From Fimbriimonadales bacterium (GTDB lineage: Bacteria > Armatimonadota > Fimbriimonadia > Fimbriimonadales > GBS-DC): 64,000 nucleotides of DNA. Position 1 is the first letter of the stretch. The number at the start of each line of letters is the position of its first letter. The notes under the pieces are model-generated. The model made no database searches and was not told the DNA's origin. It worked only from the letters and a program-made list of their open reading frames with translations. The stretch is taken from positions 459,221-523,220 of the forward strand of contig AP024673.1 of assembly GCA_025998675.1 (NCBI GenBank), in the 5' to 3' direction. A program made the translations under genes and the position numbers. Below are positions 898 to 57,821 of this stretch, piece by piece.

Positions 898-903
898 ACC
901 GAC

Positions 904-3479: not shown

Positions 3480-4588
3480 AGATTGCAATCGCGGGCGGGA
3501 TTACAGGCGGGCATCTGTTCCCAGCGTTGGCGGTAGCGCAGGCGTTGCAGGCGCGGGGACACGAGGTGCTGTATCTTGGGGCGCAGCACGGCATCGAAGG
3601 GCGCGTCGAGCTGCCTGTGCCGCATGCGCTGCTGGAGATGAGCGGGCTACGCTCCACACGGCGCACCCTGTGGTCTGTGCCGCTCGCGCTCTGGCGCGCG
3701 CGACGCGCGGCTTACAGGTATCTGCACGCATTTGGCGCAGAGCTGCTGTTCACCACGGGCGGCTATGCCTCCATCCCCATCGCGATGGCGTTTTTGCGAT
3801 TGAGCGAGCGGCTGGCGCTGCTGGAGCCAGACGCGCTGCCTGGCAAAGCGAACCGCTGGCTGGCGCGTCGCGCGATACGGGTCTGCGTGAACTTTGAGGA
3901 GGCGGCGCAGGTGTTTGGCGGCGCGAAGACGGTGCGTACCGGGCTACCCGTGCGCTCCGAGGTCTACCTGCCCGAAGTGGCGCCTGCCGAAGCGCGCGAT
4001 TACTTCGGGTTGAAGCGCGACCGATTCACCGTGCTGGTGGTCGGAGGCAGTCAAGGCGCACAGGCGTTGAACGAAGCCGTGCTGAACACTGTGCAGTACC
4101 TGCCGTCGGGCGAACTGCAGTGGCTCCATCTCACGGGCGAGGCGAATTTTGAACTGGTGCGCAGCACAGCGGAGCGACTGGGGCTGAACGGAAACTATCA
4201 CCCGCATCCGTTTCTGACGGGGCGCGCGATGGGGCTGGCGTATCGCGCAGCGGATGTGGTCATCGGGCGCGGCGGCGCGGGCAGTCTCACCGAGTTCGCG
4301 CTCAACGGATTGCCCATGATTGTGATTCCGTACCCCCATGCGGCGGGGGGGCATCAGCGGTATAATTGCGAGGCGCTGGCGATGCGGGGCGCGGCGGAGG
4401 TGATGGACCAATCCGCGCTCACACCCCAGCGACTGGCAGAGCGGTTGCTCGACCTGCGCAATTGCCCCCAACTGCGCGCGCAGATGCAGGCAGCTGGACA
4501 GGCATGGGCGATTCCAAACGCGACCGAGCGCATCGTGCAACTGCTGGAGGAGGTTGGCAGGTGTACACACCCACAGGCATCCGTCTGA
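3476..4588 (+). CDS. murG: UDP-GlcNAc:lipid I N-acetylglucosaminyltransferase MurG
   Basis: Starts MKIAIAGGITGGHLFPALAVAQAL (MurG G-loop). Start taken at ATG 3476 inside the longer listed ORF 3248..4588 because it is translationally coupled to the ftsW stop. Confidence 0.9.
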   Translation: MKIAIAGGITGGHLFPALAVAQALQARGHEVLYLGAQHGIEGRVELPVPHALLEMSGLRSTRRTLWSVPLALWRARRAAYRYLHAFGAELLFTTGGYASIPIAMAFLRLSERLALLEPDALPGKANRWLARRAIRVCVNFEEAAQVFGGAKTVRTGLPVRSEVYLPEVAPAEARDYFGLKRDRFTVLVVGGSQGAQALNEAVLNTVQYLPSGELQWLHLTGEANFELVRSTAERLGLNGNYHPHPFLTGRAMGLAYRAADVVIGRGGAGSLTEFALNGLPMIVIPYPHAAGGHQRYNCEALAMRGAAEVMDQSALTPQRLAERLLDLRNCPQLRAQMQAAGQAWAIPNATERIVQLLEEVGRCTHPQASV

Positions 4589-25391: not shown

Positions 25392-25459
25392 CCTCTGCTT
25401 GCCGCCGCCCTGCCCAACCCGCTGTGAACGGGCTGGCCAGTAGCCCTCACCCCTTTTGT

Positions 25460-25487
25460 CCCCTCTCCCAAGGGGTTGGGAGAGGGG
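25460..25487. repeat. Perfect 12-bp-stem palindrome (REP-like hairpin) in the IS left end
   Basis: cccctctcccaa-gggg-ttgggagagggg. It lies 69 nt after the stop of the HEAT-repeat gene and could also act as its terminator. Confidence 0.6.
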
Positions 25488-25768
25488 GATGGCGCGTCGT
25501 GCGAGGCTTGCACGGCTCCCCTCTCCCGCCGCGCGGGCTTAAAGGGGTAGGTTTTTTCGCAGGGGCACAAACCAGCCTCCCCAACACCGCCAAAAACCCT
25601 GAAAAACGCCACATCACCACAGCCGTCTCCCCCCAATACGCGCCCAACTAAGCCACACATCAGCCATACCCCACCCCTAAACACCTCTGCACACACCCGC
25701 CACGCGCCAACAACCGCACACGCCTGCCCCACACAGCACGCAGACGCGCCGCACACACAACGCATAAC

Positions 25769-26896
25769 CTACTTGCCCCGACGCGGCGGCGCACGCGACG
25801 AACGCTCCCAATCCGACAACATACCCCACGCCCCAGCATCCCCCGAAAGCCACTGCGCCCACAACGCCAGCCGCCCCAACCGAAAACAACTCACCTTGCC
25901 ACGCGCCCCCAACCGCGCCTCGTCCACAGAACCCCCAACGCTCATCACCCACAGCGTCGCTATCGCCAACGCCAACCACACACGCGCCGCACGCGCACCA
26001 TCCTGCATCTGCGTCCTGTGCCACTGCCAGCCCCGACGCTTCAAGTCCGAAAACCCGCTCTCTATCCACGCCCGCTTCGCGTACCACGCAACGCACGCCT
26101 CCTCAGGCGACAGGTCGGTCACAATCAGCCACGCTTCTTTGTGCCCAACTTCCCAGCACGCCAACAGCGTACACGGCAACGGGTTCGCTTTGAAACACAC
26201 CACACGCCCGCACCAGTGCGTGCCCGCGCACGGCGCAACCGTCGCCAACTCGCGCACCGTCGGGTCGTTCTCCAGATGATACTGCCCTTGTGCGTTGATG
26301 CGCAAAAACGGATGCCACCCCAGCGCCGTAATCAACTCAAACAGCCACGGGGCGTACAGCCCTCTATCGGCGCAGACCAACACCGTCCAAGAAGCAGGGA
26401 TGCTCCCCTGCAACGCGCGCAGCAGGGCTTCCCAGTGGGGACGCCAGCTGCCCTGTTGCGTGGCAGGGAGTATCTTCCACGCGACAGGCAGAGCGCGTCC
26501 GCGATACAGCACACTGACCGTGAGGGCGGTAAAGCGTTGTCCGAGAGTGGTGGCGTCTAAGGCAAGTATCAGGCGTGTATCGCTCCAGAGGTGGGTAATC
26601 CAGCGCATCAGGGGCGCGAAGCAGGTGGCGGGGTCAAGTTCGCGTCGGTGGGTTCCTTTTTTGTGGGAGGCGTCTTTATAGTATTCGCGCAGGCGTTGGC
26701 GGACGGTGTTGAAGGGTTGGTTGAGCAGGAGAGCGAGGCAAGTCGCGAGGGTGGTCAGTCCGCAGGTACTGGTCGCGACGATCCCGAAGCTGTAGAGGGC
26801 GAGGGTGTAGGCTTGGGGTTTTGTGAGGTGTGGCAGATGGGTGCGGATGGTCAGGTATAGTTGTTCCAGTCGTTCGAGAGCCGTCGTTGTGTGCAT
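25769..26896 (-). CDS. DDE transposase (IS4/IS701-like)
   Basis: LALDATTLGQRF (D1), VLVCADRGLYAPW (D2), and the C-terminal YAKRAWIESGFSDLKRRGWQWHRTQ (Y-x2-R-x3-E-x6-K type block). Confidence 0.85.
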   Translation of the reverse strand: MHTTTALERLEQLYLTIRTHLPHLTKPQAYTLALYSFGIVATSTCGLTTLATCLALLLNQPFNTVRQRLREYYKDASHKKGTHRRELDPATCFAPLMRWITHLWSDTRLILALDATTLGQRFTALTVSVLYRGRALPVAWKILPATQQGSWRPHWEALLRALQGSIPASWTVLVCADRGLYAPWLFELITALGWHPFLRINAQGQYHLENDPTVRELATVAPCAGTHWCGRVVCFKANPLPCTLLACWEVGHKEAWLIVTDLSPEEACVAWYAKRAWIESGFSDLKRRGWQWHRTQMQDGARAARVWLALAIATLWVMSVGGSVDEARLGARGKVSCFRLGRLALWAQWLSGDAGAWGMLSDWERSSRAPPRRGK

Positions 26897-27070
26897 AGTA
26901 GGGATTGTATCCCATCGGTTGGCGGCTCTCTTTTTTTGTGTGTCGGGCTACCCCCAAAAAACCTACCCCTTTAAGCGCCGCGCGGGAGAGGGGCTGGGGG
27001 TGAGGGCAAACAGTGCGTGGCTCTGACTGTAAGCGCACAGCAATTACGAAGCGTGACGCGCCGATTGATA

Positions 27071-27307
27071 TTAGCACCCATCCCCAAAGCTAAACAACAC
27101 CGTCAGCAAGTCCGCGTCGTCCACAATGCCGTCGTTGTTGAGGTCTTCCGCGCCGCCGCTGTTGCCAAATGCGAACAGCACCGCGAGCAGGTCAGCGTCG
27201 TCCACACAGCCATTCTGGTCAACATCTCCTGAATGCGCCGCGCAACCAACGAAACCGGCAAGGTCTCCCGGACCGCTGTTGTATCCACCACGATGCGCTG
27301 AAAGCAC
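27071..27307 (-). CDS. Dockerin-only mini-ORF (likely gene remnant)
   Basis: The 78-aa ORF consists of two Ca-loop/helix repeats: GDVDQNGCVDDADLLAVLFAFG and EDLNNDGIVDDADLLTVLFSFG. It has no signal peptide and no catalytic or structural partner domain. Confidence 0.45.
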   Translation of the reverse strand: MLSAHRGGYNSGPGDLAGFVGCAAHSGDVDQNGCVDDADLLAVLFAFGNSGGAEDLNNDGIVDDADLLTVLFSFGDGC

Positions 27308-38116: not shown

Positions 38117-38941
38117 TCAGTCCTCTTCGCCGAGCGGAAGCGTCGGCTCGCTGGGCGTGCGCTTGATGAGGCGGTGTTCGTCGGCGATGCGCCCGCGCGC
38201 CAGACGCTGTTCAATCATCTCGTGATACTTGGGGTCAATCTCCGCCGACACGAACCGCCGCCCCAGCCGCTGGCACACCTCCAGCTCCGAACCGCTCCCG
38301 CCGAAATGCACCAGCACCACATCGCCCGCCTGCGTACAGCTGAGGATGAGCATCTCTGCCAGCTTCTGAGGAATCTGGCAGGCATGGAAGGTCTTCTCGC
38401 GGCTCACATTTTTCACCAGATCATAGTAGAACCAGCTGTAGGGCATCCGCCCCTTCTGCCCCTGCGCCATCCGCTGGCGAATGCGCCTGTCCGTTGGGTT
38501 CTGATAGGGCTGCGCCACGGCGTCCTTGAAAAACTTATTGTGGCGCGTCTTGCGGCAGTGCAGAATGCTCCGATGCGCCGTCGTGAAACGCTTCGGGCTG
38601 TGCCCGATGTTGGTGTTGTAGCACCACACATAGTCCAGCACCTCGTAGCACGCCGAGTCGAGGTAGCGCACGCGCAGGTAGGCGTTTTGCCTGGGGTAGT
38701 TGATGAAAAACATGTTCCCGTCGTCTTTGAGGACGCGCAGGGATTCACGCGCCAGCTCGATGTACCACTCGATATACTCTTCAAAGGAGCGCGTGTAGGA
38801 GCGGTCGTTGTAGCGCACGCCGACATTGTAGTCGGGGTCGCTGTAGACCATATCCACCGAACCGTCGGGCAACTGACGCATCAGGTCAAACACATCGCCC
38901 AGATAGACCCGATTGATGAGATGTTCTGGAATTGCGTTCAT
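38117..38941 (-). CDS. DNA methyltransferase, beta-class N6A/N4C type (type II R-M)
   Basis: Motif IV-like VDMVYSDPDYNVG sits near the N-terminus and motif I (VLVHFGGSGSELEVC) near the C-terminus, the circular permutation typical of beta-class amino-MTases. Start taken at ATG 38941. Confidence 0.8.
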   Translation of the reverse strand: MNAIPEHLINRVYLGDVFDLMRQLPDGSVDMVYSDPDYNVGVRYNDRSYTRSFEEYIEWYIELARESLRVLKDDGNMFFINYPRQNAYLRVRYLDSACYEVLDYVWCYNTNIGHSPKRFTTAHRSILHCRKTRHNKFFKDAVAQPYQNPTDRRIRQRMAQGQKGRMPYSWFYYDLVKNVSREKTFHACQIPQKLAEMLILSCTQAGDVVLVHFGGSGSELEVCQRLGRRFVSAEIDPKYHEMIEQRLARGRIADEHRLIKRTPSEPTLPLGEED

Positions 38942-38945
38942 CCAC

Positions 38946-39743
38946 CTACCTCCTGACCAGGCGATACTCTGCCTTGCCCTCCAGCACAATAGAGTCTATC
39001 CGATCCAGGTCAGTGAATCGGTAGAGGTACATGCGTACCCGCACGGTGCTTTTTCGCTTTTGGCGCAGTACATAGCAGGCGTTTATCTCTTGCGGTTGCA
39101 GTTCGACCTCTTGTAGCTTCTGGCTATAATATTTTATAGGGTGAAAAATTTGGTAGATAGAAAAGTCTTTCCTAAAACTGTTCTTTGCTTCTACGACCGT
39201 GACGACCCCGTTACACTCTATGGTAAGGTCAATTTCCATTTGCTGAGAGGTAAGGTTCAACTGCGTATTCCCTACCCAGTAGCTCAAGTCTGCACGAGTG
39301 CGACCAGGAATGTAGATTCGCGGCGCTGCTGTGATGTCCTCATAAAGGAAGTCGTGCAGAATCCGCTGATTGAATGCAAGCGAGAGTGTGCTGGCTTCGC
39401 CTGCTTCCAAGTCGTTCAGAAGACTGCTCCGATAGCGCCAGATCCACTTTTCGTTATCGTCTATAGGCTCGAAGTCATGGTACCATTTATCAAGTGCCTG
39501 CACGAATTGGTGTTGTCCTTTGCCAAGGTGCGCGATACAGTAATTTCCTTGTATCATAACATCAGGGAGCGTAGATTTACTGTCTATCTTGGTCGCATCG
39601 AAAGGATTGCCAAAACCAAATCGTTGGCAAACAGACTTTACCGCACTGTTATTGAACACAGGATTGCCTGTGCGTTGGTATTGCTGAAATAGCGCCTCCA
39701 GAACCTGCCGTTTTTTCGACGGACTCGATTGCTTGGCTGCCAT
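38946..39743 (-). CDS. Putative type II restriction endonuclease
   Basis: 265-aa ORF ending 4 nt upstream of the MTase start on the same strand. Visibly AT-richer than its flanks. Contains a PD-(D/E)xK-like pattern (EIDLTIECNGVVTVVEAKN). No family assignment is possible by eye. Confidence 0.55.
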   Translation of the reverse strand: MAAKQSSPSKKRQVLEALFQQYQRTGNPVFNNSAVKSVCQRFGFGNPFDATKIDSKSTLPDVMIQGNYCIAHLGKGQHQFVQALDKWYHDFEPIDDNEKWIWRYRSSLLNDLEAGEASTLSLAFNQRILHDFLYEDITAAPRIYIPGRTRADLSYWVGNTQLNLTSQQMEIDLTIECNGVVTVVEAKNSFRKDFSIYQIFHPIKYYSQKLQEVELQPQEINACYVLRQKRKSTVRVRMYLYRFTDLDRIDSIVLEGKAEYRLVRR

Positions 39744-46431: not shown

Positions 46432-48039
46432 ATGCCCGTTCTGCAGAGCAATATCAACCCGAACGACGAGGAGTTTCGCGCGAATCGGGCGCACTTCGAG
46501 ACGCTTTTGCAGCAATACCGCGACGCGCTGGCGTGGGCGCAGGCAGGCGGCGGCGCGGACGCGCTCGCCAAGCACCGCGCCCGCAACAAACTCACTGCCC
46601 GCGAGCGCATCGACGCGCTAATTGACCCCAACACGCCCTTTCTGGAGCTTGCGCCGCTGGCGGCGTATGGCATGTACGGCAACGAGGCGCCATGCGCAGG
46701 CATCGTGTGCGGCGTCGGCGTCATTCACGGCAAAGAGTGCATGATTGTCGCCAACGATGCGACGGTCAAGGGCGGCACTTACTTCCCCATCACGGTCAAA
46801 AAGCACCTGCGCGCGCAGGAGATTGCGCTGGAGAACCGCCTGCCGTGCCTCTATCTGGTCGACTCGGGCGGCGCGTACCTGCCGCTGCAGGCGGAGGTGT
46901 TCCCCGACCGCGACCATTTCGGGCGTATTTTCTACAATCAAGCGCGCATGTCCGCGCTGGGCGTCCCGCAGATTGCGCTGGTGATGGGTTCCTGCACGGC
47001 GGGGGGCGCGTATGTGCCCGCGATGAGCGACCAGGCGATTATCGTCAAGCAGCAGGGCACGATTTTCCTGGGCGGCCCGCCGCTGGTGAAAGCCGCCACG
47101 GGCGAGGTGGTGAGCGCGGAAGAGCTGGGCGGCGCGGAGGTGCATACCCGCATCTCAGGCGTCGCGGACTACTTCGCCGAGAACGACCTGCACGCCATCC
47201 AGATTGCCCGCGACATCGTGGCGCACCTGAATATCACTAAACACCTCCCCGCCGACCTGCAACCGCCCGAAGAGCCGCGCTACGATCCCGCCGAAATCTA
47301 CGGCATCCTGCCGCGCGACCTGCGCCAGCCGTTCGAAGTGCGCGAGGTGATTGCCCGCATCGTGGACGGCAGCCGCTTTCTGGAGTTCAAGGCGCGATTC
47401 GGGCAGACGCTGGTGTGCGGCTTCGCCCACATTCACGGCTTCCCCGTTTGCATCGTCGCCAACAACGGCATCCTGTTTTCCGAGAGCGCGCAGAAGGGCG
47501 CACACTTTATCGAGCTGTGCTGCCAGCGGCGCATTCCGCTGGTGTTCCTGCAGAACATCACGGGCTTTATGGTGGGCAAAAAGTACGAGAACGAGGGCAT
47601 CGCCAAGCACGGCGCGAAGATGGTGACGGCGGTCGCCAGCGCGGAAGTGCCCAAGTTCACGGTGGTGATGGGCGGCTCGTATGGCGCGGGCAACTACGCG
47701 ATGTGCGGGCGCGCCTACCAGCCCCGCTGGCTGTGGATGTACCCCAACGCCCGAATCTCAGTGATGGGTGGGGAGCAGGCGGCGAATGTGCTGCTGACGG
47801 TTAAGTTAGACCAGCTGGCGGCGAAGGGGCAAACCATGAGCGAGGAAGAGCAAGTCGCCTTCAAGCAGCCCATTCTGGACAAGTACGCCGAAGAGAGCAG
47901 CGCGTTTTACAGCACGGCGCGCCTGTGGGACGACGGGATTATCGACCCTGCGGATACGCGCACGGTGCTGGCGCTGGCGCTTGCCGCTGCCTACAACGCG
48001 CCCATCCCAGAAACCCGCTTCGGCGTGTTTCGGATGTAG
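46432..48039 (+). CDS. Acyl-CoA carboxylase carboxyltransferase (beta) subunit, methylcrotonyl-CoA carboxylase MccB-like
   Basis: 535 aa. Two crotonase-like CT halves ([19 protein letters not shown] ... [15 protein letters not shown] ... [16 protein letters not shown]). Confidence 0.85.
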
Positions 48040-48041
48040 CC
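47899..48041 (+). repeat. Left copy of the 143-bp direct repeat (3' end of the carboxyltransferase gene)
   Basis: Hand alignment with 56687-56829 gives 134/143 identical positions and the same length. Both copies end with the stop codon followed by cc. Confidence 0.85.
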
Positions 48042-48128
48042 CAGTTAACGCGCCCGCGCCGCCGCCCCCGTGAACCCGAAATCGGCAAATCTTGCGCACA
48101 CTGGCAGGATTTGGGGGCGTTGAGGGCG

Positions 48129-48163: not shown

Positions 48164-48632
48164 ATGAATCTTTCATCGGAAACACTGGCAACGCTGGAGC
48201 AGTGGTTCCAGACCGCTGTTGCCATCTGTCGTCGGAAAGGGCTGACCGAGCAGGACGCCGAAGACTGCGCCGCTGAAGTGCGTCTGCACCTGCTGCGCCA
48301 CTTGCAGCGGGGCGGACTCCTCTCGTATGCATACTTCCTGCGCGTGCTACAGGGCTGCCTGGCTGACTTCTGGAGCGCTCAACTGCCCACCGTGCCCCTT
48401 GAGGTCGCCGATTTGTGCGGGGGGGGGGGCGTTCTGCGAGCTGGCAATCACGGTACGCCTTGCGCTGGAGCAGCTGGAACCTGCCGATAGAGACCTCCTC
48501 TGGCGGCACGATGGGGAAGGCTATACCCTGAAAGAGCTGGCGCTCCATTTTGGCTGCACTGAGGTGTGCCTGCGGCAGCGGTTGCATCGCGCCCGCCAGC
48601 GCCTCAAGCGCCTGCTCGCCGACACCGAATAG
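48164..48632 (+). pseudogene. ECF-like sigma-70-family factor split by a frameshift in a G11 tract
   Basis: The 5' ORF (48164-48490) looks like region 2 (DAEDCAAEVRLHLLRHL...FLRVLQGCLADFW). The 3' ORF (to 48632, other frame) is a region-4 HTH (LEPADRDLLWRHDGEGYTLKELALHFGCTEVCLRQRLHRARQRLKRLL). Removing one G (G10) joins them into a single protein of about 155 aa. Confidence 0.6.
48419..48429 (+). repeat. Homopolymeric G11 tract
   Basis: tgc-ggggggggggg-c, counted from both overlapping ORF translations (CGGGGV / CAGGGAF). Confidence 0.9.
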
Positions 48633-48726
48633 CCCTTTTTGCCCCCAAATCGGCAACCCCCTGTCACATTTTGGCGGTTTTTGGGGATTCTAAAGACGGA
48701 TTTCGCACACAGGAGGTTTGAGGGCA

Positions 48727-50589
48727 ATGCGAGTGTTCTGGGTTTTTGGGCTGATAAGTGCGCTGCTGCTGGGCGGCGCGGCGCAGACGCTGGTGCTGAC
48801 CAACGGCGACGCGAACGGCGATAATGTGGTGGATGACGCCGATTTGCTTGCAGTGTTGTTCGCGATGGGGCAATCGTGTCCGAGTGGTTGCCCAGAGGAT
48901 TTGAACGGGGATGGCGTGGTGGACGACGCAGATATGCTGCTTGTGCTTTTCAATCAGGGGGCGCAGGGGGCGTCGGCGTTTGCGGGCACGGTGCAGTCGC
49001 CGTCGGGGTCGTTTGGGCGCACGATAGGCGTGCGGTTGGGCGACTGGGTTGGGAGTGCGCAGTCGGTGAAGGTGCAGCTCAAGCCTGTGGGCGCGGAGGA
49101 TGACCCGAATGTGCCGATTTACGAGTGGACTTTTTCGGTGGGGGGCACGCCGCAGGATGTGCAGCTGGTCAATCTGCCTGCGGGGGCGTACACGGTGCGG
49201 GCGTTTGTGGCGAGTGGCGCGCGCTGGCTGCGGACAGAGGGTAAAATCGTGACGGAGGTGCCGTGGATCTTCGCGGCGCCGACGGGGGCGAATAAGGTGA
49301 CAGTCTACTGGGATCCAGTGCCGGGTGCGACGGGTTATCGGGTGCGCTGGGGGACGGTGAGTGGGAGTTATCCCAGCGCAAGTGGGCTGTTATCGGGTTC
49401 GGCGCGGCGCTACACGGTGTCGGGCTTGGTGAGTGAGCGGGAGTATTACTTTGTGGTGGAGGCGGAGTGGAATGGGGTTTGGGGTCCGCCTTCGGAGGAA
49501 GATAGCGCAGTGCCGCATGTGGGGGCGATCCGATGGGATTCTGGCAATGTTAGCTGGATTATGAAGGATGTTCGGCGTGTGATTGGCTCTATGGCAGGGT
49601 ACGATATGCTCGATGTGTTAGGTCCTGACGGTCTAATCTATACTGACAGTGGGGTAAGGCAGCCGACGACCTTCTTTGACACGAATCGGCAGGTTTTCCT
49701 TTTTACCGACTTTCCTAATTTGCAAGTTCCAGCGGTTGACGCAGGGCGTGAAGAGTTAGAGAACACCTGCACCGGACCCTACCGTCGTGTGCGGACAAGA
49801 GGGGATCGAGGTATCACAGCTGTTTGTGGAACTTTTTGGGTACCCTCCACAACTTCACCGCGCTGGCCGTTCATTCAGATTTCCATACTTCCAGTCGTGG
49901 ATGACCCCAACAACAACTTTAGAACCGCAGATACACCATACATGTACTTTGGTTTCGCATTTGGCAACACGGATGTTGAAGGTGGTTTGATGTATCATCG
50001 GGCGGGTAGAGCTGGTTTGGGCTACCCACGCTGGCAGGCTTATATGAAGGTTGTGCATCAAGGTCGTGTTAGAAATGTAGCGATTACAGATACCAGCAAT
50101 ATGAGAGGGCACATCTTGGATAATGTATATGGTGGGACACCTACTGTAGTCGAGCTGTACGCTTTTAGTCGGGATCGGGCAGCAATGCTCCGCATACAGC
50201 CTATAGATCCCAAATACGGCAACACAATTTTCCTCAGGGAGATTTTTGCTACTGCCAAGCTCAGACAAAATATATCAGGAGCACGTTTTCGGCGTGTTTT
50301 CTCGATAGCTCAAAGAAGGGAGTCAATGCCAGGGTGCCCACTAATGCCCGGCTATGTAAGAACGGGTAGTTATGTAAGCGGAATGGGAATAGGGTATAAT
50401 CCTATTGAGGGTTCTCCTTTAGATCCACCTGGGCAGATTTCAACGGCTCCCTTTCTTTGGTTCGAGTGGATAAGACGCGATTATACCGATCAAGCTGGCT
50501 CATATCCAGGTTCAAATGCTGGGATTGTTTCGTGGGTCGAGATAATCCAAGATTCACGGGAAGCAGTCACTATATACTTAGGAAATTGA
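48727..50589 (+). CDS. Secreted protein: signal peptide + dockerin-like double Ca-loop + FN3 + about 370-aa unassigned C-terminal domain
   Basis: MRVFWVFGLISALLLGGAAQ signal. NGDANGDNVVDDADLLAVLF / EDLNGDGVVDDADMLLVLF dockerin repeats. FN3 (VTVYWDPVPGATGYRVRWGTVSGSYP...YYFVVEAEWNGVWGPPS). The C-terminal part has markedly lower GC. ATG 48727 is preceded by aggagg. Confidence 0.75.
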   Translation: MRVFWVFGLISALLLGGAAQTLVLTNGDANGDNVVDDADLLAVLFAMGQSCPSGCPEDLNGDGVVDDADMLLVLFNQGAQGASAFAGTVQSPSGSFGRTIGVRLGDWVGSAQSVKVQLKPVGAEDDPNVPIYEWTFSVGGTPQDVQLVNLPAGAYTVRAFVASGARWLRTEGKIVTEVPWIFAAPTGANKVTVYWDPVPGATGYRVRWGTVSGSYPSASGLLSGSARRYTVSGLVSEREYYFVVEAEWNGVWGPPSEEDSAVPHVGAIRWDSGNVSWIMKDVRRVIGSMAGYDMLDVLGPDGLIYTDSGVRQPTTFFDTNRQVFLFTDFPNLQVPAVDAGREELENTCTGPYRRVRTRGDRGITAVCGTFWVPSTTSPRWPFIQISILPVVDDPNNNFRTADTPYMYFGFAFGNTDVEGGLMYHRAGRAGLGYPRWQAYMKVVHQGRVRNVAITDTSNMRGHILDNVYGGTPTVVELYAFSRDRAAMLRIQPIDPKYGNTIFLREIFATAKLRQNISGARFRRVFSIAQRRESMPGCPLMPGYVRTGSYVSGMGIGYNPIEGSPLDPPGQISTAPFLWFEWIRRDYTDQAGSYPGSNAGIVSWVEIIQDSREAVTIYLGN

Positions 50590-50599
50590 GGAGGTTCTT

Positions 50600-51592
50600 A
50601 TGAACAACTTGCTGGCAGTAACTGACCCGAAGATACCAGACCGATTTCGGTTTGTGGTGTTTGATGGGCGAAGGGGTGTTGCTTTCTATCAGGTGTCAGA
50701 CGGCAAGCTCATACAGAAGGAATGGCTTGTCCAGTTTTCTGGTTACTGGTACATCTCTGGGGCAAATCCCACCCTTTCACCGAATGGGCGATGGATCTAC
50801 CTGCCCCTGCACGCTGATACTGCCTTGATCGACATCCAAACAAAAAGGTTGCACTGGCTGGGACGCGCCCGCCGCCTGCCGGAAGGAGGATACATTCCAG
50901 AGGTCTATCGGCTACGCTGGTCACCCAATAGCCGCTACCTGTTGGGACAATCGGCGCCTCAAGGGCGCGACTTGATTTTGTGTCAACCTTTAGGACAGGC
51001 TTATCGGGTGCTGGTGAAAGACGGGGTGTATGGTTATGGCTGGTATCCTGATAGTCGGCACATCTGGTATGTGCAAAAGGATGGAAGGGGATATTTCCAG
51101 TGGTATCGACGGGATCTGCAATCGGGTCGCGTGGAGCGATTGAGAGCATCAGAGCGGCAGCGAATCAATAGCGATTGGGATTTGACGTTAGGTCCGTTTC
51201 GGTGGATGGAGGTGGAAGTTCGTCGGCTGCTTAAGCCGGCTGAATGGACGGCTTTGATGGTGATTGCATGTACGGCAGATAGGCAGTTGCGGGTTCTGCT
51301 GCCAGCGCAGAACCTGCACCGTCGGATGTTGATTGAGTGGCGGAATGGGCATTCAGTAGTGCTGGAGGCACCTCCGACAGTGCGCGCGATGAGCTTGTGG
51401 GATTTATCGGCGGACAAGCAGTGGGCACTTGTGTGGAGCCAAGAGCAAGGCGATGGGCACTGGTATGTGGTGCATCTGGAGCGTGGTCACTGGGAGCGAC
51501 TGGTTTTTTCTGCAGAGGTGGAGCAGGCCTTGTCGGTTGTTGATGGGGTAATTCGCGCAGATTTTGAACCAAGCGCACGCCTTCTGCGATAG
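50600..51592 (+). CDS. Island paralog P1 (330 aa), PD40/TolB-like repeat protein without signal peptide
   Basis: LSPNGRWIYL, RWSPNSRYLLG, GWYPDSRHIWYV and LSADKQWALVW repeat cores. Shares the family motifs with P2-P4. RBS gaggagg. Confidence 0.7.
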   Translation: MNNLLAVTDPKIPDRFRFVVFDGRRGVAFYQVSDGKLIQKEWLVQFSGYWYISGANPTLSPNGRWIYLPLHADTALIDIQTKRLHWLGRARRLPEGGYIPEVYRLRWSPNSRYLLGQSAPQGRDLILCQPLGQAYRVLVKDGVYGYGWYPDSRHIWYVQKDGRGYFQWYRRDLQSGRVERLRASERQRINSDWDLTLGPFRWMEVEVRRLLKPAEWTALMVIACTADRQLRVLLPAQNLHRRMLIEWRNGHSVVLEAPPTVRAMSLWDLSADKQWALVWSQEQGDGHWYVVHLERGHWERLVFSAEVEQALSVVDGVIRADFEPSARLLR

Positions 51593-51703: not shown

Positions 51704-52782
51704 ATGGTTCGGCAGAAGAGACAAGAAGGGGTATCACCGCCGCCTGTTGTTTATGTCTTCTTGGACGTAGACCTAAACCAACCCGCACCTGAAGGGCATT
51801 ACTGGATTAGCCTCCATCGTAAAATCTTACGCTATCGCGAAGGGGAAGTCGTTGAGGAACCTCTGCAAAGTATCCCCCTTTTTCTCGATCCGATAAAGAA
51901 CGAGTTTCGCCATAAGGACCTCTCGCCTGATGGTCAGTATTACTACTATGCGGGGGTATCTTTCACCTATTGCGGCAGAGTGGGCGACGCGAGTTCCAAA
52001 CCGATTGTGCTGAACAGCCTCTATCGCTGCAAGTTCTCGCCTGATGGTCGTTTCCTGTGCGGATACGGAGGGGGCGAGGAAGAGGAGATGATAGTGGTAG
52101 ACTGTGCCACGCGCCGTGTGCGCCGCTTGGCAACGCCAGAGTATCCGCGCGACACCGAGGATCCAAATGCCGACTATCGGTTTGGGTGGTATCCAGACAG
52201 TCGGCATATCTGGTATCAGGAAGATGTCGGGGCGCTCGATTATCATCGGCTGCGGGCTTCCAAGCAGGATGTGGTCAGTGGGCGTCGCTGGGTGTTGAAA
52301 GGGCGCCAGCTGGATGAGGTGTACCGCGAGTGGGCGTTGTTGGATCCACGCTACCGACGGGTCCTGTGGGGATGGATAATAACTGTGCCTTCCGCTACTC
52401 TCCCCGTCAACAGGTTCGGGCGCGGGTGGAGCCGCTCGCCGCGGCTTCGTATCTTGAATACCGCCCGAGGCGTCAGCAAGTGTCGGTAGAGTGGCGGTAT
52501 GGGCGTTCGCGCGTGGGGATAGAGCGAGGGCAACACCCCTGGGTACGGATACTTCCGCGAGATGTGACGGAGGATGGGCGCTGGGTGCTTCTTTCCGTTG
52601 GGAAACAGAAGGATGAGGAGAACTTTCATAGCGAGCTGCTTGCAGTAGAAGTGCCGATGGGCAGGAGGTACAGCTATGTTCAATTATCGGGGAAAGGTGT
52701 TGGTCTGGTTGGTATCCCGCGGCTGGCAACTCCATACGATAGACCTTTGTACCAGTTTTGGCGAGGCGAGGCAAATACTTGA
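51704..52782 (+). pseudogene. Island paralog P2, frameshifted
   Basis: The N-terminal 2/3 (KFSPDGRFLCG, FGWYPDSRHIWY, LLDPRYR) is in one frame up to about 52356. The family C-terminus (AFRYSPRQQVRARVEP...DVTEDGRWVLLSV...ELLAVEV) continues in listed ORF 52330..52782. The span of 1079 nt is not divisible by 3. Confidence 0.7.
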
Positions 52783-52800: not shown

Positions 52801-52870
52801 ACAGTCTACAGGGATGAGGCGCCAGGTGCGATGAGGTATCGGGTGCGCTGGGAGATGGTGAGCGGGAGTT
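52801..52870 (+). pseudogene. Relic of the FN3-coding segment of gene 48727..50589
   Basis: 58/70 nt identical by hand alignment to 49300-49369 (TVYWDPVPGATGYRVRWGTVSGS versus TVYRDEAPGAMRYRVRWEMVSGS). No ORF context. Confidence 0.75.
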
Positions 52871-52977
52871 CGCCCGGTTTTCTCGATCGATGAGGATGCT
52901 GGTGAGCAAACTTGGGGTGGGACAAGTCCAAGATATTATCGCGAAACAGTTGGCGTCGATCTGAGGAGGCGGTAGAT

Positions 52978-54027
52978 ATGGGGATAGCTCAAGAAACCGT
53001 AGAGAAACGGCTGCCGCCGATAGAATATTTTTCGGTTTCCTCGCACCCGAAACGCAAAGGCTTTCGAACGCTATATCTCGCTCGATTGCAGCAAGGGCAC
53101 CAGCACCTCAAGAGAAGAATCGCCACCTTCAACGAAGCCGCAATGGTGGACCCCTTCTGGGGGCTGGCTGTGCTGTCGATAGTCCTTTCACCTGACCAGC
53201 AGTACTACTGCATCACAGGCGCCAGTCAGAGCATCATCGGGCAGATAGGGCAGCCTCCGTTCAAAACGATAGACGACGCTTTTTACGGTCGTTTCTCGCC
53301 CGATAGCCGCTACCTGTTGGGCTACCGTGCCCTCAGTGGCAATCTGGAGCTGGTAGACTGCAGACGCAGGCAAACCCGTCGGCTAACAGAAGCGAACAGC
53401 ACACTGGATCGGGATGCCAGCAAAGAGTACTTCTACCACTTTGGCTGGTATCCCGATGGGCGCGCGGTCTGGTTTCGTCTTGACTGGATTACCCCGACAG
53501 GACCGCTGCCCGAACGCTACTATCGGCTGGAGCTAACAACAGGGCGTAAGCAGGTGTTGGGCGCCGCACAAAGCCGCCAGTTGCATACCGACTGGCAGTT
53601 GCTCAACCCACGCTATCGCTACTGCAGTCCCTTTTTGCAGGGCAATCGGTTGTATGCCTACTCGCGTGATGGGCGATGGCGTGTACGGGTGGAGCCTTAT
53701 TATCCCTATTCGGTTGATCATCCTGAGGACAGGGCAAGGGTGTATGTGGAACAACGAGGTGGGGTTTCGCGGTTGGTGGTGCAGGCGGAGCGGCATGGGT
53801 GGGCAAAGGTGTATCCGCAGGATGTGTCGGTGGATGGGCGGTGGGTGTTGTTGATAGTGGAACGCTGGGGTGTGGATGGAAACGGGCAGCGGGTGTTGCA
53901 GGGAGAGTTAGTGGCAGTGGAGGTGGCGCGTAGGACGGTGCTATATCCGCTGGTGAAGGGTGGGAAGCGTGTTGCCCAGTTCGTGCGGACGAACCAACTG
54001 GAGCCAGCATACTGGTTCAGCAAGTGA
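52978..54027 (+). CDS. Island paralog P3 (349 aa)
   Basis: RFSPDSRYLLG, FGWYPDGRAVWF, DWQLLNPRYRY, DVSVDGRWVLL, ELVAVEV. ATG 52978 is preceded by gaggagg. No signal peptide. Confidence 0.7.
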   Translation: MGIAQETVEKRLPPIEYFSVSSHPKRKGFRTLYLARLQQGHQHLKRRIATFNEAAMVDPFWGLAVLSIVLSPDQQYYCITGASQSIIGQIGQPPFKTIDDAFYGRFSPDSRYLLGYRALSGNLELVDCRRRQTRRLTEANSTLDRDASKEYFYHFGWYPDGRAVWFRLDWITPTGPLPERYYRLELTTGRKQVLGAAQSRQLHTDWQLLNPRYRYCSPFLQGNRLYAYSRDGRWRVRVEPYYPYSVDHPEDRARVYVEQRGGVSRLVVQAERHGWAKVYPQDVSVDGRWVLLIVERWGVDGNGQRVLQGELVAVEVARRTVLYPLVKGGKRVAQFVRTNQLEPAYWFSK

Positions 54028-54116: not shown

Positions 54117-55157
54117 ATGAAACATCACCCACCTGTTGAACTGATGACGATGCGCGAAACGAGCAATCCTCCTTACTATGATCTCTATCTGGCTCGCTAT
54201 CAACAACTATGGACGCTCCAAAAACTGCTCACGGTTGGGATTACTATCTTTAGCGACGACCTCTCGTGGGACAAACAGTGGTACTATCTCGCCTCGGTAA
54301 ACAACGGCACCTTTCTGTGCAAGGTGGGACAACCAAAACTCAAAAAAATCAGTGAGGAGCTGCTGAACTGTCGTTTCTCCCCTGACAGCCGCTTTCTGCT
54401 GGGAACTACTCATTTCAGAGGAGGAATGGTTCTCTTTGATCTCAAGTATGACACTCATAAAGTAATTGACAGGGGCTACGCAGAATATACCTCCCATGCG
54501 TCCAGCTTTCCCTTCGGCTGGTATCCTGATGGGCGTGCCGTCTGGTATTGCCGCCCAGCGAGAGGTGGAGAAGAAAACGATGTCTACTTTCGGGTGGTGG
54601 TTGGGAGCTGGCAGAGTCAACGGCTTTCAGCTCGTGAGGTCAGGCAAATTCAGATGGGCTGGGATTTGTTAGACCCGCGTTTCCGCTACCCCAGCGAGCC
54701 AGTCCTGACATTGCACCGCCCTAAAACAGCCCCAAAGGGATACTATGCAGCTGAGGTTAGATATGCGTATTCACGGAACTGTCAGTTCCGACTGCGAGTA
54801 GTGCGGTATCGGGAGGATTTAGCTCCTGAAGCGATACCTACGCCAGAGCAACTCCCGCAGGTGAAACATGAAGTCGTGCTGGAGAGCCGCAGTGGACGCT
54901 CACAGGCGCTGGTCAGCCTGAACGACCCCCCGTGGACCGATGCGGAGCGGATCATCCCGCAGGCAGTATCTAATGATGGGCAGTGGGTGCTGTGGGCAGC
55001 GGAGCGCCCCCTGTACGATCCTTTGCGGAGGGAAGAGGGGTTTCGGATGCTGGGCGTGTTGATGAATGTTCAATCAGGAGAAAAACAGTTCCTGCCCGAT
55101 GAAATTCCAGGCATAGGAAGGTATTCGTCTGCCCGTATGTGGTTTGATGAGGGGTGA
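54117..55157 (+). CDS. Island paralog P4 (346 aa)
   Basis: RFSPDSRFLLG, FGWYPDGRAVWY, GWDLLDPRFRY, AVSNDGQWVLW. RBS ggaggag. No signal peptide. Confidence 0.7.
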   Translation: MKHHPPVELMTMRETSNPPYYDLYLARYQQLWTLQKLLTVGITIFSDDLSWDKQWYYLASVNNGTFLCKVGQPKLKKISEELLNCRFSPDSRFLLGTTHFRGGMVLFDLKYDTHKVIDRGYAEYTSHASSFPFGWYPDGRAVWYCRPARGGEENDVYFRVVVGSWQSQRLSAREVRQIQMGWDLLDPRFRYPSEPVLTLHRPKTAPKGYYAAEVRYAYSRNCQFRLRVVRYREDLAPEAIPTPEQLPQVKHEVVLESRSGRSQALVSLNDPPWTDAERIIPQAVSNDGQWVLWAAERPLYDPLRREEGFRMLGVLMNVQSGEKQFLPDEIPGIGRYSSARMWFDEG

Positions 55158-55253
55158 GTCTGTGCGTATTCCGACTATCCAGTTGATCGGCTCCGGCCCC
55201 TGTGGACAAAAACGGCACTCCCACAGGGCAGAGCTTCGTGGAGCACGACAGGC

Positions 55254-55919
55254 GTGCTTGGGCAACTATACGCAACTACCCGTACAGGCGAATTGCAGAA
55301 CCCCTGTGCGCGGCTGTATCGTTCGGGCAAGAACTTTGCGGAGCAGAACTGGAACCTGGTGGTATCGTTTGCGGTGTGGGGGTATAATACCGCTGACCCG
55401 AACGCCGATGCGGGTGTGGTGTACCTGTCGGGTGTGGACGCCCTGTCGCGGTTGTTGCTGGTGGGCAGCGAGTGGGGCAGCTATGCGACAGGTGTGGGCG
55501 GTGTGCGCCGGGGCGGCGTGGCGCGCGGGGCAGCCAAGCTCAGCGGCGGCTCTCGGCTGGCGGGGCAATCTGCAGAGCTGCCAACGCCGCGAGCAGGGCA
55601 AAAAGTCTACCGTGTATACGGGGGCGAACCGACGGAGGTCAATGCTTGGATGCGGAAGGAGTATTCGGGACCAATGGGAAGGTACTGGACGCCTGTGGAC
55701 CCGCGCACTGTGCGGAACTATAGGTACAAAGCTGGCTTACCCAAAGAAAATAGGGGACGCTTTCTGATTATTGGACGGATCGTGGATCCCACTGGTGTAG
55801 AGGTGGGACGCGCCGCGCCTATTTGTAGCAATCGCGGCGGGTTGGTTGAATACAAAATCCCAGACCCAGAACGACAAATCGAGATTCTGCGAGTACTAGG
55901 CTTAAATCCGCCTCTGTGA
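55254..55919 (+). CDS. Toxin-like protein (orphan C-terminal effector module?), start uncertain
   Basis: The frame is open from 55158, immediately after and in frame with the P4 stop. GTG 55254 is the listed start. After a G/A/R-rich linker, a compact His-free C-terminal domain: KVYRVYGG...GRYWTPVDP...AGLPKENRGRFLIIGRI...NRGGLVEYKIP. This pattern reminds me of ART/TNT-fold NAD-utilising toxins. It is followed by a small acidic helical ORF. Confidence 0.45.
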   Translation: MLGQLYATTRTGELQNPCARLYRSGKNFAEQNWNLVVSFAVWGYNTADPNADAGVVYLSGVDALSRLLLVGSEWGSYATGVGGVRRGGVARGAAKLSGGSRLAGQSAELPTPRAGQKVYRVYGGEPTEVNAWMRKEYSGPMGRYWTPVDPRTVRNYRYKAGLPKENRGRFLIIGRIVDPTGVEVGRAAPICSNRGGLVEYKIPDPERQIEILRVLGLNPPL

Positions 55920-55946
55920 TTGCTCCTTGCATGTTGGGAGGCAGTT

Positions 55947-56330
55947 ATGAGAAGTGACTATTACTCGCTGGTGAAGGTACTTGAGCGGATTGCTCGGTTC
56001 TTTGAGCAGCTTTCGCAACCCAACAGAGGAGAATACTTCAATCTACTTGCCGGGATGATCCGCGAGGGGAGATACGAGGAAGCGATTGAAGAGTTAACTG
56101 GCTTGCGCCTATGGGGAGGTGCAGGGTCGTATGTGGATCTTGTACTCTACCCTAAAGATGGGTTTGTTTTCGGCGAAGAGGATTTCGGACGAATAAACGC
56201 TGAATATTGTTCTCTACTTCTCGATCTGCTAACCCAGCTGGAGCGGATAGCGCCACGTTCGTGGATGGGAGACATGAAGGACTCGTTAATTCGTTTGAAA
56301 GATTATTACTCGGCGATTAATAGGTGCTGA
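55947..56330 (+). CDS. Putative cognate immunity protein (127 aa)
   Basis: ATG 55947 is preceded by gggagg, 27 nt after the toxin-like stop. Low GC, helical-looking, no signal peptide or TM (MRSDYYSLVKVLERIARFFEQL...). Confidence 0.4.
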   Translation: MRSDYYSLVKVLERIARFFEQLSQPNRGEYFNLLAGMIREGRYEEAIEELTGLRLWGGAGSYVDLVLYPKDGFVFGEEDFGRINAEYCSLLLDLLTQLERIAPRSWMGDMKDSLIRLKDYYSAINRC

Positions 56331-56686
56331 GATGTAGTGAGGCGTCTGCTTGCCTCGATTTCGATGCTTGTGGGGTAGGCGCTGCGGCTGACAGGTGTCT
56401 CTGCTCTACAAAGATGGGTATCGCCGCGAGTGTATTGCCTGTGAAGGGCGTGTCAGTCGGGGGCACTTGAACTCGTGAGAAAACCCGATCGGAGTCCCCT
56501 TCAAAAGCGCAGGTGTCTCTGTTGCCGAAGCAGGCTACCTCTCAGCCGATCCTTCCGCTCCTGAAGGCATAGCCTTTCTGAAAGCGCTGCACGCCAGCGC
56601 AGGGATTGCCCAGATTGCGCTGGAGATAGAGGGCTATGCTTCCCTGCTCCGTGCGCTGGGCGCTGTGGGCGTGGATACGCATAGGC

Positions 56687-56829
56687 AGCGCGTTCTACAG
56701 CACGGCGCGCCTGTGGGACGATGGGATTATCGACCCTGCGGACACGCGCACCGTGCTGGCGCTGGCGCTCTCTGCCGCCTACAACGCGCCCATCCCCGAA
56801 ACCCGCTTCGGCGTGTTTCGGATGTAGCC
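56687..56829 (+). repeat. Right copy of the 143-bp direct repeat: orphan 3' fragment of the carboxyltransferase gene
   Basis: Encodes [46 protein letters not shown] with no upstream carboxyltransferase coding sequence. Confidence 0.85.
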
Positions 56830-56831
56830 GA

Positions 56832-57821
56832 CTATTCACGCACGGGCAGAGGCATGCCGTACTCGGCGGCGCGATAGGCGGCTAAGGCGACGGCGGCGGC
56901 GCGGTAGCCGTCCTCGCCGGTCGCCAGCGTCTGGCGCGGCTCGCCCGCAACCACTCGCACGAACTCGTCCACCATCAGGTAGTCGATGTTGTCGCCCCAG
57001 AACGCCTGTCGGATACGCTCGGCGCGGTCGTCGTAGTGAACGAGGTGCTGCGCGAACATGTCCATCTCGATAATCCCGCGCGCGCCGACGGCGGCGAGGG
57101 TCACATCGCCCCAGGTGGGGAAGGTCTTCGGGCGCGACCAGCTGGCGTCCAGCGTCGCGAACACGCCGTTCTGCAGGGTCATGCTGAGCATCGCCGTGTC
57201 GTCATACGCGCCGTGAAACATGTTGTTGCCCGTCTCGGCGTACACTTCGGTAATCTCCTGTCCCGTGAGCAGGCGTATCAGGTCGGCGACATGCACCGTG
57301 TGGTCAATCAGCGCGCCGCCGCCCGATTGTGCGGGGTCAGTGAACCAGCCGCCGGGGTTCGAGCCGCGGTTCGTGCCGCGCAGCGCGAGCAGCTCGCCGA
57401 TAGCGCCCGATTCGTAGAGCTGGCGCATCTGCTGAAACGCGGGGCTGAATCGGCAGGGAAAGGCGGTGAACAGGTGGACGCCTGCGCCCTGCGCGGCGGC
57501 GAGCATCGCCTTGCCGTCCTCCTCGCGGGTCATCAGCGGCTTCTCGCACAGGATATGCTTCCCTGCCGCCGCCGCCATCTGCGCCAGCGGCGCGTGGCGC
57601 ACATTTTCCGAGCAGATAATCACCGCCTGCACCTCGGACGCCAGCAACGCCTCATAACTATCGAACGCCTGCGTCTCCCACTGGAGCGCCTTCGCCTGCG
57701 CACGCTGTTTATCGTGGTCGGCGATGCCGACCAGCTCCGCGCTGGGGTGTGTCTTGAGGCAGTGCGCGTAGCTGTCGGCGTGCAGGTGCGCGAAACTCAT
57801 GATGCCCACTTTGACCTTCAT
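56832..57821 (-). CDS. Gfo/Idh/MocA-family NAD(P)-dependent oxidoreductase
   Basis: MKVKVGIMSFAHLHADSY ... ILCEKPL, a Rossmann N-terminus plus the GFO C-terminal domain. Start ATG 57821 with a ggaggg RBS. The listed ORF extends far upstream spuriously. Confidence 0.85.
   Translation of the reverse strand: MKVKVGIMSFAHLHADSYAHCLKTHPSAELVGIADHDKQRAQAKALQWETQAFDSYEALLASEVQAVIICSENVRHAPLAQMAAAAGKHILCEKPLMTREEDGKAMLAAAQGAGVHLFTAFPCRFSPAFQQMRQLYESGAIGELLALRGTNRGSNPGGWFTDPAQSGGGALIDHTVHVADLIRLLTGQEITEVYAETGNNMFHGAYDDTAMLSMTLQNGVFATLDASWSRPKTFPTWGDVTLAAVGARGIIEMDMFAQHLVHYDDRAERIRQAFWGDNIDYLMVDEFVRVVAGEPRQTLATGEDGYRAAAVALAAYRAAEYGMPLPVRE

Follow-up and report, generated by a model that had tools for sequence, protein, structure and literature searches.

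The subject of this report is a gene for a 620-residue, apparently secreted protein at 48,727 to 50,589 of a window of 64,000 nucleotides (nt), that is, positions 459,221 to 523,220 of contig AP024673.1 (GCA_025998675.1), from the metagenome-assembled genome (MAG) of a hot-spring Fimbriimonadales bacterium (Armatimonadota). The C-terminal domain (C-domain) of the protein and the adjacent downstream gene, here called the partner, form a cassette that is inherited and exchanged as one, with a conserved junction anchoring the recombination, and this we regard as well established. As to its role, we favour, with slightly better than even confidence, a reading in which the protein, referred to below as the effector, would be the delivery and tip component of a polymorphic effector-immunity locus, the tip being YrpD-like and probably hydrolytic. 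A toxin-antidote relationship of tip and partner is moderately supported, and peptidase chemistry of the tip weakly.

The stem of the effector is conserved and its tip is variable. Over 38 homologs the mean identity to the effector was 68% for signal peptide and dockerin, 55% for the β-sandwich termed domain X and 75% for the fibronectin type III (FN3) domain, whereas the C-domain halves averaged 38% and 30%. Homolog P0019 is an extreme case, its dockerin, X and FN3 being 95, 84 and 94% identical and its C-domain halves 33 and 29%. A first-pass annotation, made from the letters of the window, had predicted just this, namely a conserved N-terminal part of about 250 amino acids (aa) and varying C-termini; composition along the gene proved non-uniform and the homologs C-terminally polymorphic, the opposite of the two outcomes named there as fatal to the idea. 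The N-terminal 180 residues (signal peptide, dockerin and X) furthermore recur in front of DUF6531/RHS repeats in proteins P0055, P0060 and P0071 with 59-68% identity, which is also the range for domain X by itself.

Two loci locate the change from stem to tip. Locus L006 (GCA_037442365.1) is syntenic with the window, the 3' end of a carboxyltransferase gene and 5.9 kb of right flank being 94-95% identical in nucleotide sequence. Its stem is 90.5% identical up to window position ~49535, past which nucleotide similarity to the window is absent across the C-domain and the partner. Locus L001 (GCA_037444405.1), which lies in another genomic context, presents the converse. In the block matching window positions 49152-51579 the stem part is 88.2% identical (synonymous divergence, dS, 0.31), the C-domain 98.8% and the partner 99.1% (dS 0.012-0.018), and 42 of the 65 differences fall before position 49480. 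Both breakpoints lie in the junction, with the consensus GPPSEEDSAVPHxGAI(P/R)WD, and over 11 loci the mean nucleotide identity is 80-92% from -69 to +20 and then drops to ~40%. Because of the L006 breakpoint, the converse pattern in L001 and the RHS toxins on the same stem, recombination rather than gradual drift is taken to have produced the variety. This supports the earlier proposal of a variable tip recombined onto a conserved stem, with two amendments: the tips are not unrelated cargo but deeply diverged alleles of one fold, and the unit exchanged is not the C-domain alone but the C-domain with its partner gene.

Base composition steps at the FN3/C-domain junction. The GC drop seen at first reading from ~49.5 kb is sharp, GC falling from 0.635 in the stem to 0.486 in the C-domain and GC at third codon positions (GC3) from 0.747 to 0.439. 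In 300-nt windows across 49.5-50.7 kb, GC lies 2.5-3.9 standard deviations (SD) under the rest of the window (mean 0.638, SD 0.044), and low GC continues past the effector gene, shallower, through the paralog array to ~56.4 kb. MAGs may be chimeric, and errors are common at homopolymers and repeats; nevertheless, to explain the drop as a mis-assembly, or as a by-product of amino-acid composition, would be scarcely credible. Third codon positions show it most strongly (0.75 to 0.44), low GC3 recurs in every C-domain allele examined (0.39-0.47 vs 0.62-0.75 in the stems of six loci), the same arrangements are found in independent assemblies (L003, L004 and L009; L006 and L007), and the window lies on a contig of 2.99 Mb.

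As already observed in the first-pass annotation, the effector gene is the first after a sigma-like gene and stands directly upstream of four paralogs (par1 to par4). These form one family with the repeated blade motifs SPDxRY/GWYPDxR/DGRW, the profile of which matches the β-propellers eIF2A, TolB, Atu1656 and WD40 (E 4e-6 to 1e-4); partners in the Fimbriimonadales clade are 330-370 aa long, carry no signal peptide and have their start 5-20 nt past the stop of the effector gene. About 20 loci were mapped using hidden Markov models (HMMs) for the stem, FN3, C-domain and partner. Wherever downstream DNA exists, a complete C-domain gene is followed ~10-150 nt on by a partner (the window and L001-L017), the exception being the more fragmented L018. 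The partner travels with the C-domain, being 99.1% identical in nucleotide sequence in L001 and 67% identical at the amino-acid level in L002. All four distant members (L019-L022) have a gene immediately downstream. For L020 and L021 this gene gives a match to the partner profile; for L019 the match is to two genes further downstream and not to the adjacent one, and L022 has no downstream gene matching the profile. The adjacent downstream proteins of L019 (7783-8961), L020 (5657-6814) and L021 (6186-7436), two of the three matching the partner profile, possess signal-peptide or lipoprotein-like N-termini. Since the Fimbriimonadales partners have none, the compartment in which partner and tip meet may differ between lineages.

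Partner and tip also vary together. Across 12 cassettes the identity of the C-domain correlates with that of the partner (Spearman 0.43, p 0.003, the pairs not being independent), pairwise C-domain/partner values including 93/86, 87/88, 75/71 and 69/68, and shows no such relation to the identity of FN3 (Spearman 0.06). Loci L008 and L016, which reside in one genome, have FN3 domains that are 98% identical and C-domains that are only 42% identical. Phage tail fibres display the same pattern, in which the N-terminus is conserved, the C-terminus is a mosaic and a chaperone encoded downstream varies along with it, so that the pair could be left over from a receptor-binding protein of a phage or tailocin and its assembly chaperone; weak BFVD matches to tail proteins and the occurrence of Ig_J_second and IgGFc_binding domains in distant C-domain family members would fit. 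We consider such an origin very improbable, as the BFVD TM-scores do not exceed 0.31, PHROGs matches the FN3 region only (E 1.6e-4) and offers no phage family for the partners or the C-domain, neither a Sec signal peptide nor a dockerin belongs to a tail fibre, and phage structural genes occur in none of the ~20 loci.

Orphan genes give a further indication of what the partners do. Within the window par3 and par4 are intact with no adjoining C-domain, while par2, read in two frames, is either a pseudogene or the product of a sequencing error. A remnant of an FN3 domain, the relic of a second effector gene, sits just upstream of par3, and a truncated fifth partner lies past par4. Locus L002 contains a second effector disrupted by an insertion sequence (IS), with a C-domain fragment of the L006 allele type followed by the matching type of partner, and arrays of orphan partners or remnants are present also in L005/L015, L011, L012, L014 and L018. 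Orphan partners that are kept while effector pieces decay are the pattern expected of immunity genes.

The C-domain had been described at first as a domain of ~370 aa devoid of recognisable motifs. It is indeed large, although its extent is 359 aa (residues 262-620), and it can be recognised as YrpD/YncM-like with a neprosin-like fold. Because FN3 matches swamped the Foldseek results with the full-length model, the C-domain was modelled alone using AlphaFold2 (AF2) and an alignment of 20 homologs, which gave a predicted local distance difference test score (pLDDT) of 90.6 and a predicted template modelling (TM) score of 0.92. Against the PDB, the best Foldseek match of this model was to the neprosin zymogen (7zu8/7zva; E 6e-7, probability 1.00, TM 0.40-0.45, 12% identity), followed by Bacillus subtilis YncM (4hfs; E 4e-6, TM 0.65 normalised on YncM) and HC7 (8pn3; E 3e-3), with a tail of generic ConA-like folds (legume lectins, GH16 jelly-rolls and glucanases). 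The predicted model has the β-sandwich fold of a glutamic peptidase catalytic domain.

At the level of sequence the C-domain gave no usable match in Pfam, NCBIfam or PADLOC; unlike neprosin, it matches neither Pfam Neprosin nor Peptidase_A4, and the PADLOC models returned zero matches for the effector, the partners and the orphan modules alike. A single-sequence search of the PDB with the effector recovered FN3 and dockerin matches only, and transaldolase matches to the profile of close homologs (A2) in the same database were set aside as chance. HMMER, run exhaustively with a profile of the C-domain, retrieved 236 relatives at 50% clustering. A broader profile (A3), built from 49 more distant relatives, matches YncM (4hfs; E 5.2e-14, 55.6 bits), and the family and YncM have in common the motifs DTPYxYxG…[DE][VI][DE][AG]GLxY…WxP. 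With the Pfam YrpD model (PF15493) there was no hit to the effector, and sub-threshold ones to one of the 20 (E 0.025) and four of the 49 relatives (best E 0.012). Because of the fold match and the profile match to YncM, the C-domain is assigned to a distant branch of the YrpD/YncM ('peptidase_G1-like') superfamily, of which PDB 8xai is a second solved member. YrpD and YncM, both secreted by Bacillus, are annotated as 'peptidase_G1_like' and have no known function (bioRxiv 10.64898/2026.06.23.734000), and for that reason membership supplies no mechanism. Like them the effector C-domain has a β-sandwich core and is part of a secreted protein; unlike it, they are stand-alone proteins of ~200 aa with neither the N-terminal lobe of ~90 aa nor the stem nor a known partner gene.

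The same fold leaves room for a role in recognition or adhesion, in which a lectin-like ConA-fold tip would have undergone diversification of the receptor-binding type and the partner would be a ligand or identity determinant, as in kin recognition, with no enzymatic damage. Legume lectins and GH16 jelly-rolls do figure in the Foldseek tail, stalk-plus-tip arrangements after FN3, Ig-like and IgGFc_binding domains resemble adhesins, and dockerin and FN3 suggest surface display. Yet the matches with a probability of 1.00 are to enzymes or YncM, not to lectins; the clade partner is cytoplasmic and hence could not be a surface ligand; and a lectin that shifts its specificity should vary at its binding site, and here a cluster of polar residues is nearly invariant in all alleles. 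This explanation is therefore judged improbable.

The alignment to YncM begins only at C-domain residue ~92, the first ~90 residues forming an extra lobe that sits where the pro-domain of neprosin does (Foldseek alignment to the zymogen, 315 columns). Neprosin, a glutamic peptidase of type G3, has E188/E297 as its dyad and an all-β pro-domain and is inactive as the E297Q mutant (PMC9343461), and HC7 is a di-glutamate mucinase (PMC13003899). Residue conservation was counted over 135 long family members with an overall identity of ~25%, in the numbering of the effector protein. Position 418 is acidic in 131 (D in 68, E in 63), Q529 is kept in 128, R523 in 129 and D/E402 in 124, and K or R occupies position 522 in all 135; Y407, G409, W436 and R353 are also nearly fixed. 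Residues 418 and 529 are 111 residues apart, compared with 109 for E188/E297 of neprosin, a similarity of spacing only and not of superposed structures. The putative dyad of the C-domain, D/E and then Gln, has the reverse order of that in the eqolisins (G1; Gln and then Glu). The catalytic Gln and Glu positions of the eqolisin motifs, WVGIDG…LQTG and WYEW, may not be conserved in the C-domain family.

An enzymatic tip need not imply antagonism. The effector could be a secreted housekeeping peptidase or glycan-active enzyme serving nutrition, the cytoplasmic β-propeller its inhibitor or chaperone guard, and the diversity an adaptation to substrates. The nearest solved folds are peptidases, YrpD and YncM are ordinary secreted Bacillus proteins, the malectin, PA14, F5/8C, Big and PKD modules carried by distant family members are typical of secreted degradative enzymes, and a partner lacking a signal peptide is tightly coupled to the effector gene. 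We hold this to be unlikely, though less so than a recognition role, on three grounds. Intact orphan partners next to decayed enzyme remnants are hard to square with self-guarding only; fixed putative site residues amid a remainder at 25% identity are better explained by evasion of a binding partner than by a switch of substrate; and cassette replacement between strains of 95% average nucleotide identity, RHS tips in the same island and a stem in common with RHS toxins all point to conflict.

In the polymorphic effector-immunity mechanism that we favour, the effector would be exported by Sec and held on or near the surface of the producer by its Ca-dependent dockerin via a putative anchor. The tip would be a hydrolase made in latent form and most likely a peptidase, with a neprosin-like pro-segment in its first ~90 residues and a fixed site that comprises R353/R354, D402, Y407, the acidic residue at 418 (D or E), W436, R523 and Q529. 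It would harm competitors that lack the matching partner, whereas the cognate β-propeller would bind and neutralise the producer's own tip and the orphan par3 and par4 would guard against the tips of neighbours. Expression would be driven by the adjacent sigma factor of the extracytoplasmic function (ECF) type and toggled by a poly-G tract in its gene.

Several points weigh against this mechanism, the main difficulty being the topology. The effector appears to be exported by Sec and the partner of this clade has no signal peptide, while no domain for translocation into the cytoplasm of a target cell is evident. Toxicity, binding and catalysis are predicted properties of the tip. All tips belong to one fold, unlike the mix of unrelated toxins typical of Rhs and contact-dependent inhibition (CDI) systems, and the partner is a large (330-370 aa) β-propeller, a fold not found among the immunity proteins in the 2012 census of polymorphic toxins (PMC3482391). 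The likeness of residues 418/529 to the catalytic dyad of neprosin, which is one of spacing, is a lead rather than a result: the second position is Gln, the very change (E297Q) that inactivates neprosin, and D and E swap freely at 418, which would be unusual in a general base. The dN/dS of 1.0 for the C-domain (window vs L001) is based on just 13 substitutions, and L006 has no sigma-like gene.

The genetic logic is that of known polymorphic toxin systems, and the parts are different, namely a YrpD-like tip family, a β-propeller partner and a stem of Sec signal and dockerin. As in Rhs and CdiA-CT/CdiI (PMC3482391), there is a conserved N-terminus, a variable C-terminal tip and a conserved junction motif between them, a partner immediately downstream that co-varies with the tip, displaced or orphan modules further downstream, homologous recombination at the junction, and atypical composition. 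The resemblance to Rhs is literal as regards the stem, which is common to the effector and to RHS proteins of the same lineage. Unlike Rhs and CDI proteins, the effector possesses no RHS repeats, two-partner secretion (TPS) domain, CdiB, type VI or type VII secretion system (T6SS, T7SS) or PAAR/VgrG marker, export being apparently by Sec with a dockerin; a search with the Pfam RHS, YD and DUF6531 models produced no hit to the effector, and only the stem is common to it and P0055, P0060 and P0071. It also differs from the polymorphic systems in that most orphans are partners only and the tips share a single YrpD-like fold. Literature searches brought up no publication that treats YrpD-like domains as toxins or describes a β-propeller immunity protein against tips of this type, and none that deals with 4hfs or 8xai.

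A second parallel is with barnase/barstar and staphopain/staphostatin, in which an exported hydrolase is accompanied by a signal-less, specific inhibitor that protects the producer before export. The effector locus likewise would couple a Sec-exported putative hydrolase to a co-transcribed, signal-less putative binding protein. The barnase/barstar-type pairs are not, however, exchangeable cassettes with orphan arrays, and their inhibitors are small and not β-propellers.

The deposited records name the effector 'fibronectin type III domain-containing protein' or 'hypothetical protein KatS3mg018_0427' (exact protein look-up), and the annotators do not use an in-frame TTG at 48718, upstream of its start. 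From the N- to the C-terminus it consists of a putative signal peptide, two dockerin Ca-loops, domain X, FN3 and the 359-aa C-domain; the AF2 model of the full-length protein has an overall pLDDT of 84. Of the parts listed in the first-pass annotation, the one FN3 was borne out by Pfam and AF2, and the putative signal peptide and two N-terminal dockerin loops by inspection of the sequence, but that list was incomplete, the β-sandwich at ~86-178 having been disclosed by the AF2 strands. The F-hand loops at D28-D39 (DANGDNVVDDAD) and D58-D69 (DLNGDGVVDDAD) both read D-x-N-x-D-(4)-D-x-x-D by eye. Pfam Dockerin_1 (PF00404) scored 19.5 bits against a cut-off of 22.9, close homologs (P0002, P0014, P0055) being annotated with the domain or passing, while the match to the PDB dockerin 2y3n_B was weak (E 0.004) and AF2 confidence over the region was low (pLDDT 32-58). 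Modules of this type, with ~70% identity, stand at the C-terminus of S8 peptidases and of numerous further proteins from the phylum. A cohesin domain occurs in one distant member of the C-domain family. Like cellulosomal type I dockerins (PF00404), the module has two F-hand loops (D-x-N-x-D…D), each followed by a helix (DLLxVL); unlike them, it is N-terminal, fused to a putative effector and not to a carbohydrate-active enzyme, and under the gathering threshold. The FN3 model (PF00041) was passed over residues 185-258, with 30.6 bits against a cut-off of 25, and PDB FN3 domains matched too. The features of the locus are summarized in the table.

Table. Features of the effector locus in the window (window coordinates; AF2, AlphaFold2 model; ORF, open reading frame)
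Feature	Position	Strand	Details
Left direct repeat	47897..48059	+	163 nt; 3' end of carboxyltransferase gene (46432..48039) plus 20 nt; 90% identical to 56685-56847
ECF-like sigma gene, in two frames	48164..48632	+	Region-2-like part from 48164, region-4 part ending at 48632; Sigma70_r4_2 E 5e-10, Sigma70_r2 E 0.016
Poly-G tract (G11)	48419..48429	+	Precisely where the region-2-like half of the sigma-like gene meets the region-4 half
Effector gene	48727..50589	+	620 aa; identical to BCW94945.1/MEJ5384805.1
Putative Sec signal peptide	48727..48786	+	Residues 1-20, MRVFWVFGLISALLLGGAAQ; judged by eye; homologs share the pattern
Dockerin-like module	48808..48933	+	Two F-hand Ca-binding loops; Pfam Dockerin_1 sub-threshold
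Domain X, β-sandwich	48982..49260	+	Residues 86-178; AF2 strands 96-175, pLDDT 70-87; common to RHS toxins
FN3 domain	49261..49509	+	Residues 179-261; Pfam fn3 E 3.9e-7; AF2 pLDDT >90
Conserved junction	49480..49540	+	GPPSEEDSAVPHVGAIRWD; both breakpoints, ~49480 vs L001 and ~49535 vs L006
Variable C-domain	49510..50589	+	Residues 262-620; ~90-aa N-terminal lobe, then predicted YrpD/YncM-like β-sandwich (AF2, Foldseek, profile)
par1, cognate partner	50600..51592	+	330 aa; β-propeller profile; no signal peptide; starts 10 nt past effector stop
par2, partner paralog	51704..52782	+	Frameshifted near 52360-52375; partner HMM at 51764-52360 (hmm 18-193) and 52375-52701 (hmm 199-307)
FN3 remnant, relic of a second effector gene	52801..52875	+	75 nt; 81% nt identical to 49300-49374; tblastn to FN3 of L006 and L005
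par3, intact orphan partner	52978..54027	+	Partner HMM E 1.7e-110; ORF opens at 52912, likely ATG 52978
par4, intact orphan partner	54117..55157	+	346 aa; partner HMM E 5.8e-108; BCW94950.1 by exact look-up
Fifth-partner remnant	55162..55285	+	First ~42 codons; L006/L002 type; 70-79% aa identity to N-terminus of L006_par335; 82% nt identity to L006 2654-2782
Orphan RHS C-terminal toxin module	55254..55919	+	221 aa; WHS44_08020; residues 55-220 39% identical to C-terminus of P0273
Candidate immunity gene for orphan RHS tip	55920..56330	+	136 aa; by position only, start abutting toxin stop; no family hit other than a weak DUF6966 match
Remnant, pre-toxin region of RHS-type tip	56536..56673	+	Type L007_183; 74% aa identity to L007_183 residues 3-48
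Right direct repeat	56685..56847	+	Displaced copy of carboxyltransferase 3' end

The sigma-like gene upstream of the effector is divided by a run of G residues. Homologs stand upstream of the effector in L003, L004, L005, L008 and L009, with tracts of G10 in L003 (7684-7693), G9 in L005 (314-322) and G8 in L004 (4107-4114) and L009 (~1080-1087), beside G11 in the window. By reading, all versions with a tract are one base out of frame, while that of L008 (5073-5483) lacks the tract and is a single intact ORF, in frame. L003 and L004 are identical around the tract apart from its length. The tract is a candidate slipped-strand phase switch or site of transcriptional slippage, if it is not a homopolymer assembly error.

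The direct repeats bracket the whole low-GC island, which measures 8.6 kb in the window and 4.4 kb in the syntenic L006, where the same duplication flanks it; they may have been left by a site-specific integration long ago. An integrase or tRNA to account for them was not seen among the island ORFs, no tRNA scan having been run, and a promoter and terminator scan of the island gave no more hits than did shuffled sequence.

Beyond the partner array the island ends in RHS-type modules. The ORF at 55254-55919 is taken as an orphan RHS tip because it aligns to the C-terminus of P0273 right past the end of the RHS core; P0273 carries the PF25023 YD-shell, and the homologous part follows directly. 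Its assignment as a TNT-like toxin, from a motif, was rejected, Pfam giving no match and the relative L007_183 only sub-threshold ones to TNT and TreTu_C. L007_183 is the intact form of the remnant type at 56536-56673. In L003, which is of the JP3_11 type, a complete RHS protein and the three small genes that follow it occupy positions 1-4388, ~4 kb upstream of the effector and its partner, so that the two systems adjoin in other genomes too.

Elsewhere, identical-looking pairs of Transposase_mut genes (IS256 family) in L021 (3709-4930 and 8014-9235) flank a stand-alone C-domain gene and its partner in an arrangement that resembles a composite transposon. The window itself has a 375-aa transposase-like ORF at 25769-26896 (- strand) beside a short dockerin-like coding remnant at 27080-27232 (- strand), and the DNA standing in place of the sigma gene ahead of the L006 effector shows ~77% identity to the intergenic stretches 25436-25561 and 26956-27061 of this region. 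A second low-GC patch (0.46-0.54), at 38117-39743 (- strand), contains a 290-aa DNA methyltransferase-like ORF (DPDYNVG motif) overlapping a 265-aa ORF and, judged from the translations, is probably a restriction-modification island.

A wider proposition can be put forward tentatively, as a possibility that we would not yet bet on. The locus may represent a new class of Sec-exported, dockerin-tethered polymorphic effectors, with a latent YrpD-like hydrolase as tip and a β-propeller as immunity protein, the pairing extending beyond Armatimonadota to stalk proteins with FN3, Ig, malectin and PA14 domains, with an ECF-like sigma factor that varies in phase through its poly-G tract, and with a first functional context for YrpD/YncM. 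If this is true, the systems of bacterial competition would gain an effector fold and an immunity fold, the β-propeller, both new to them, together with a delivery logic, Sec plus dockerin, that is distinct from type V, VI and VII secretion and from Rhs shells. Two structures of the 'peptidase_G1-like' YrpD/YncM proteins have been solved, and the conflict context, the near-invariant residues and the cognate partner make their function directly testable. The natural cognate and non-cognate pairs of tip and propeller are also a ready system for the evolution of specificity between proteins. The Armatimonadota have barely been studied experimentally, and tip and partner form a portable two-gene module that can be tested in a heterologous host; for the thermophile itself, the poly-G tract in the sigma gene suggests that this may be a phase-variable antagonism locus.

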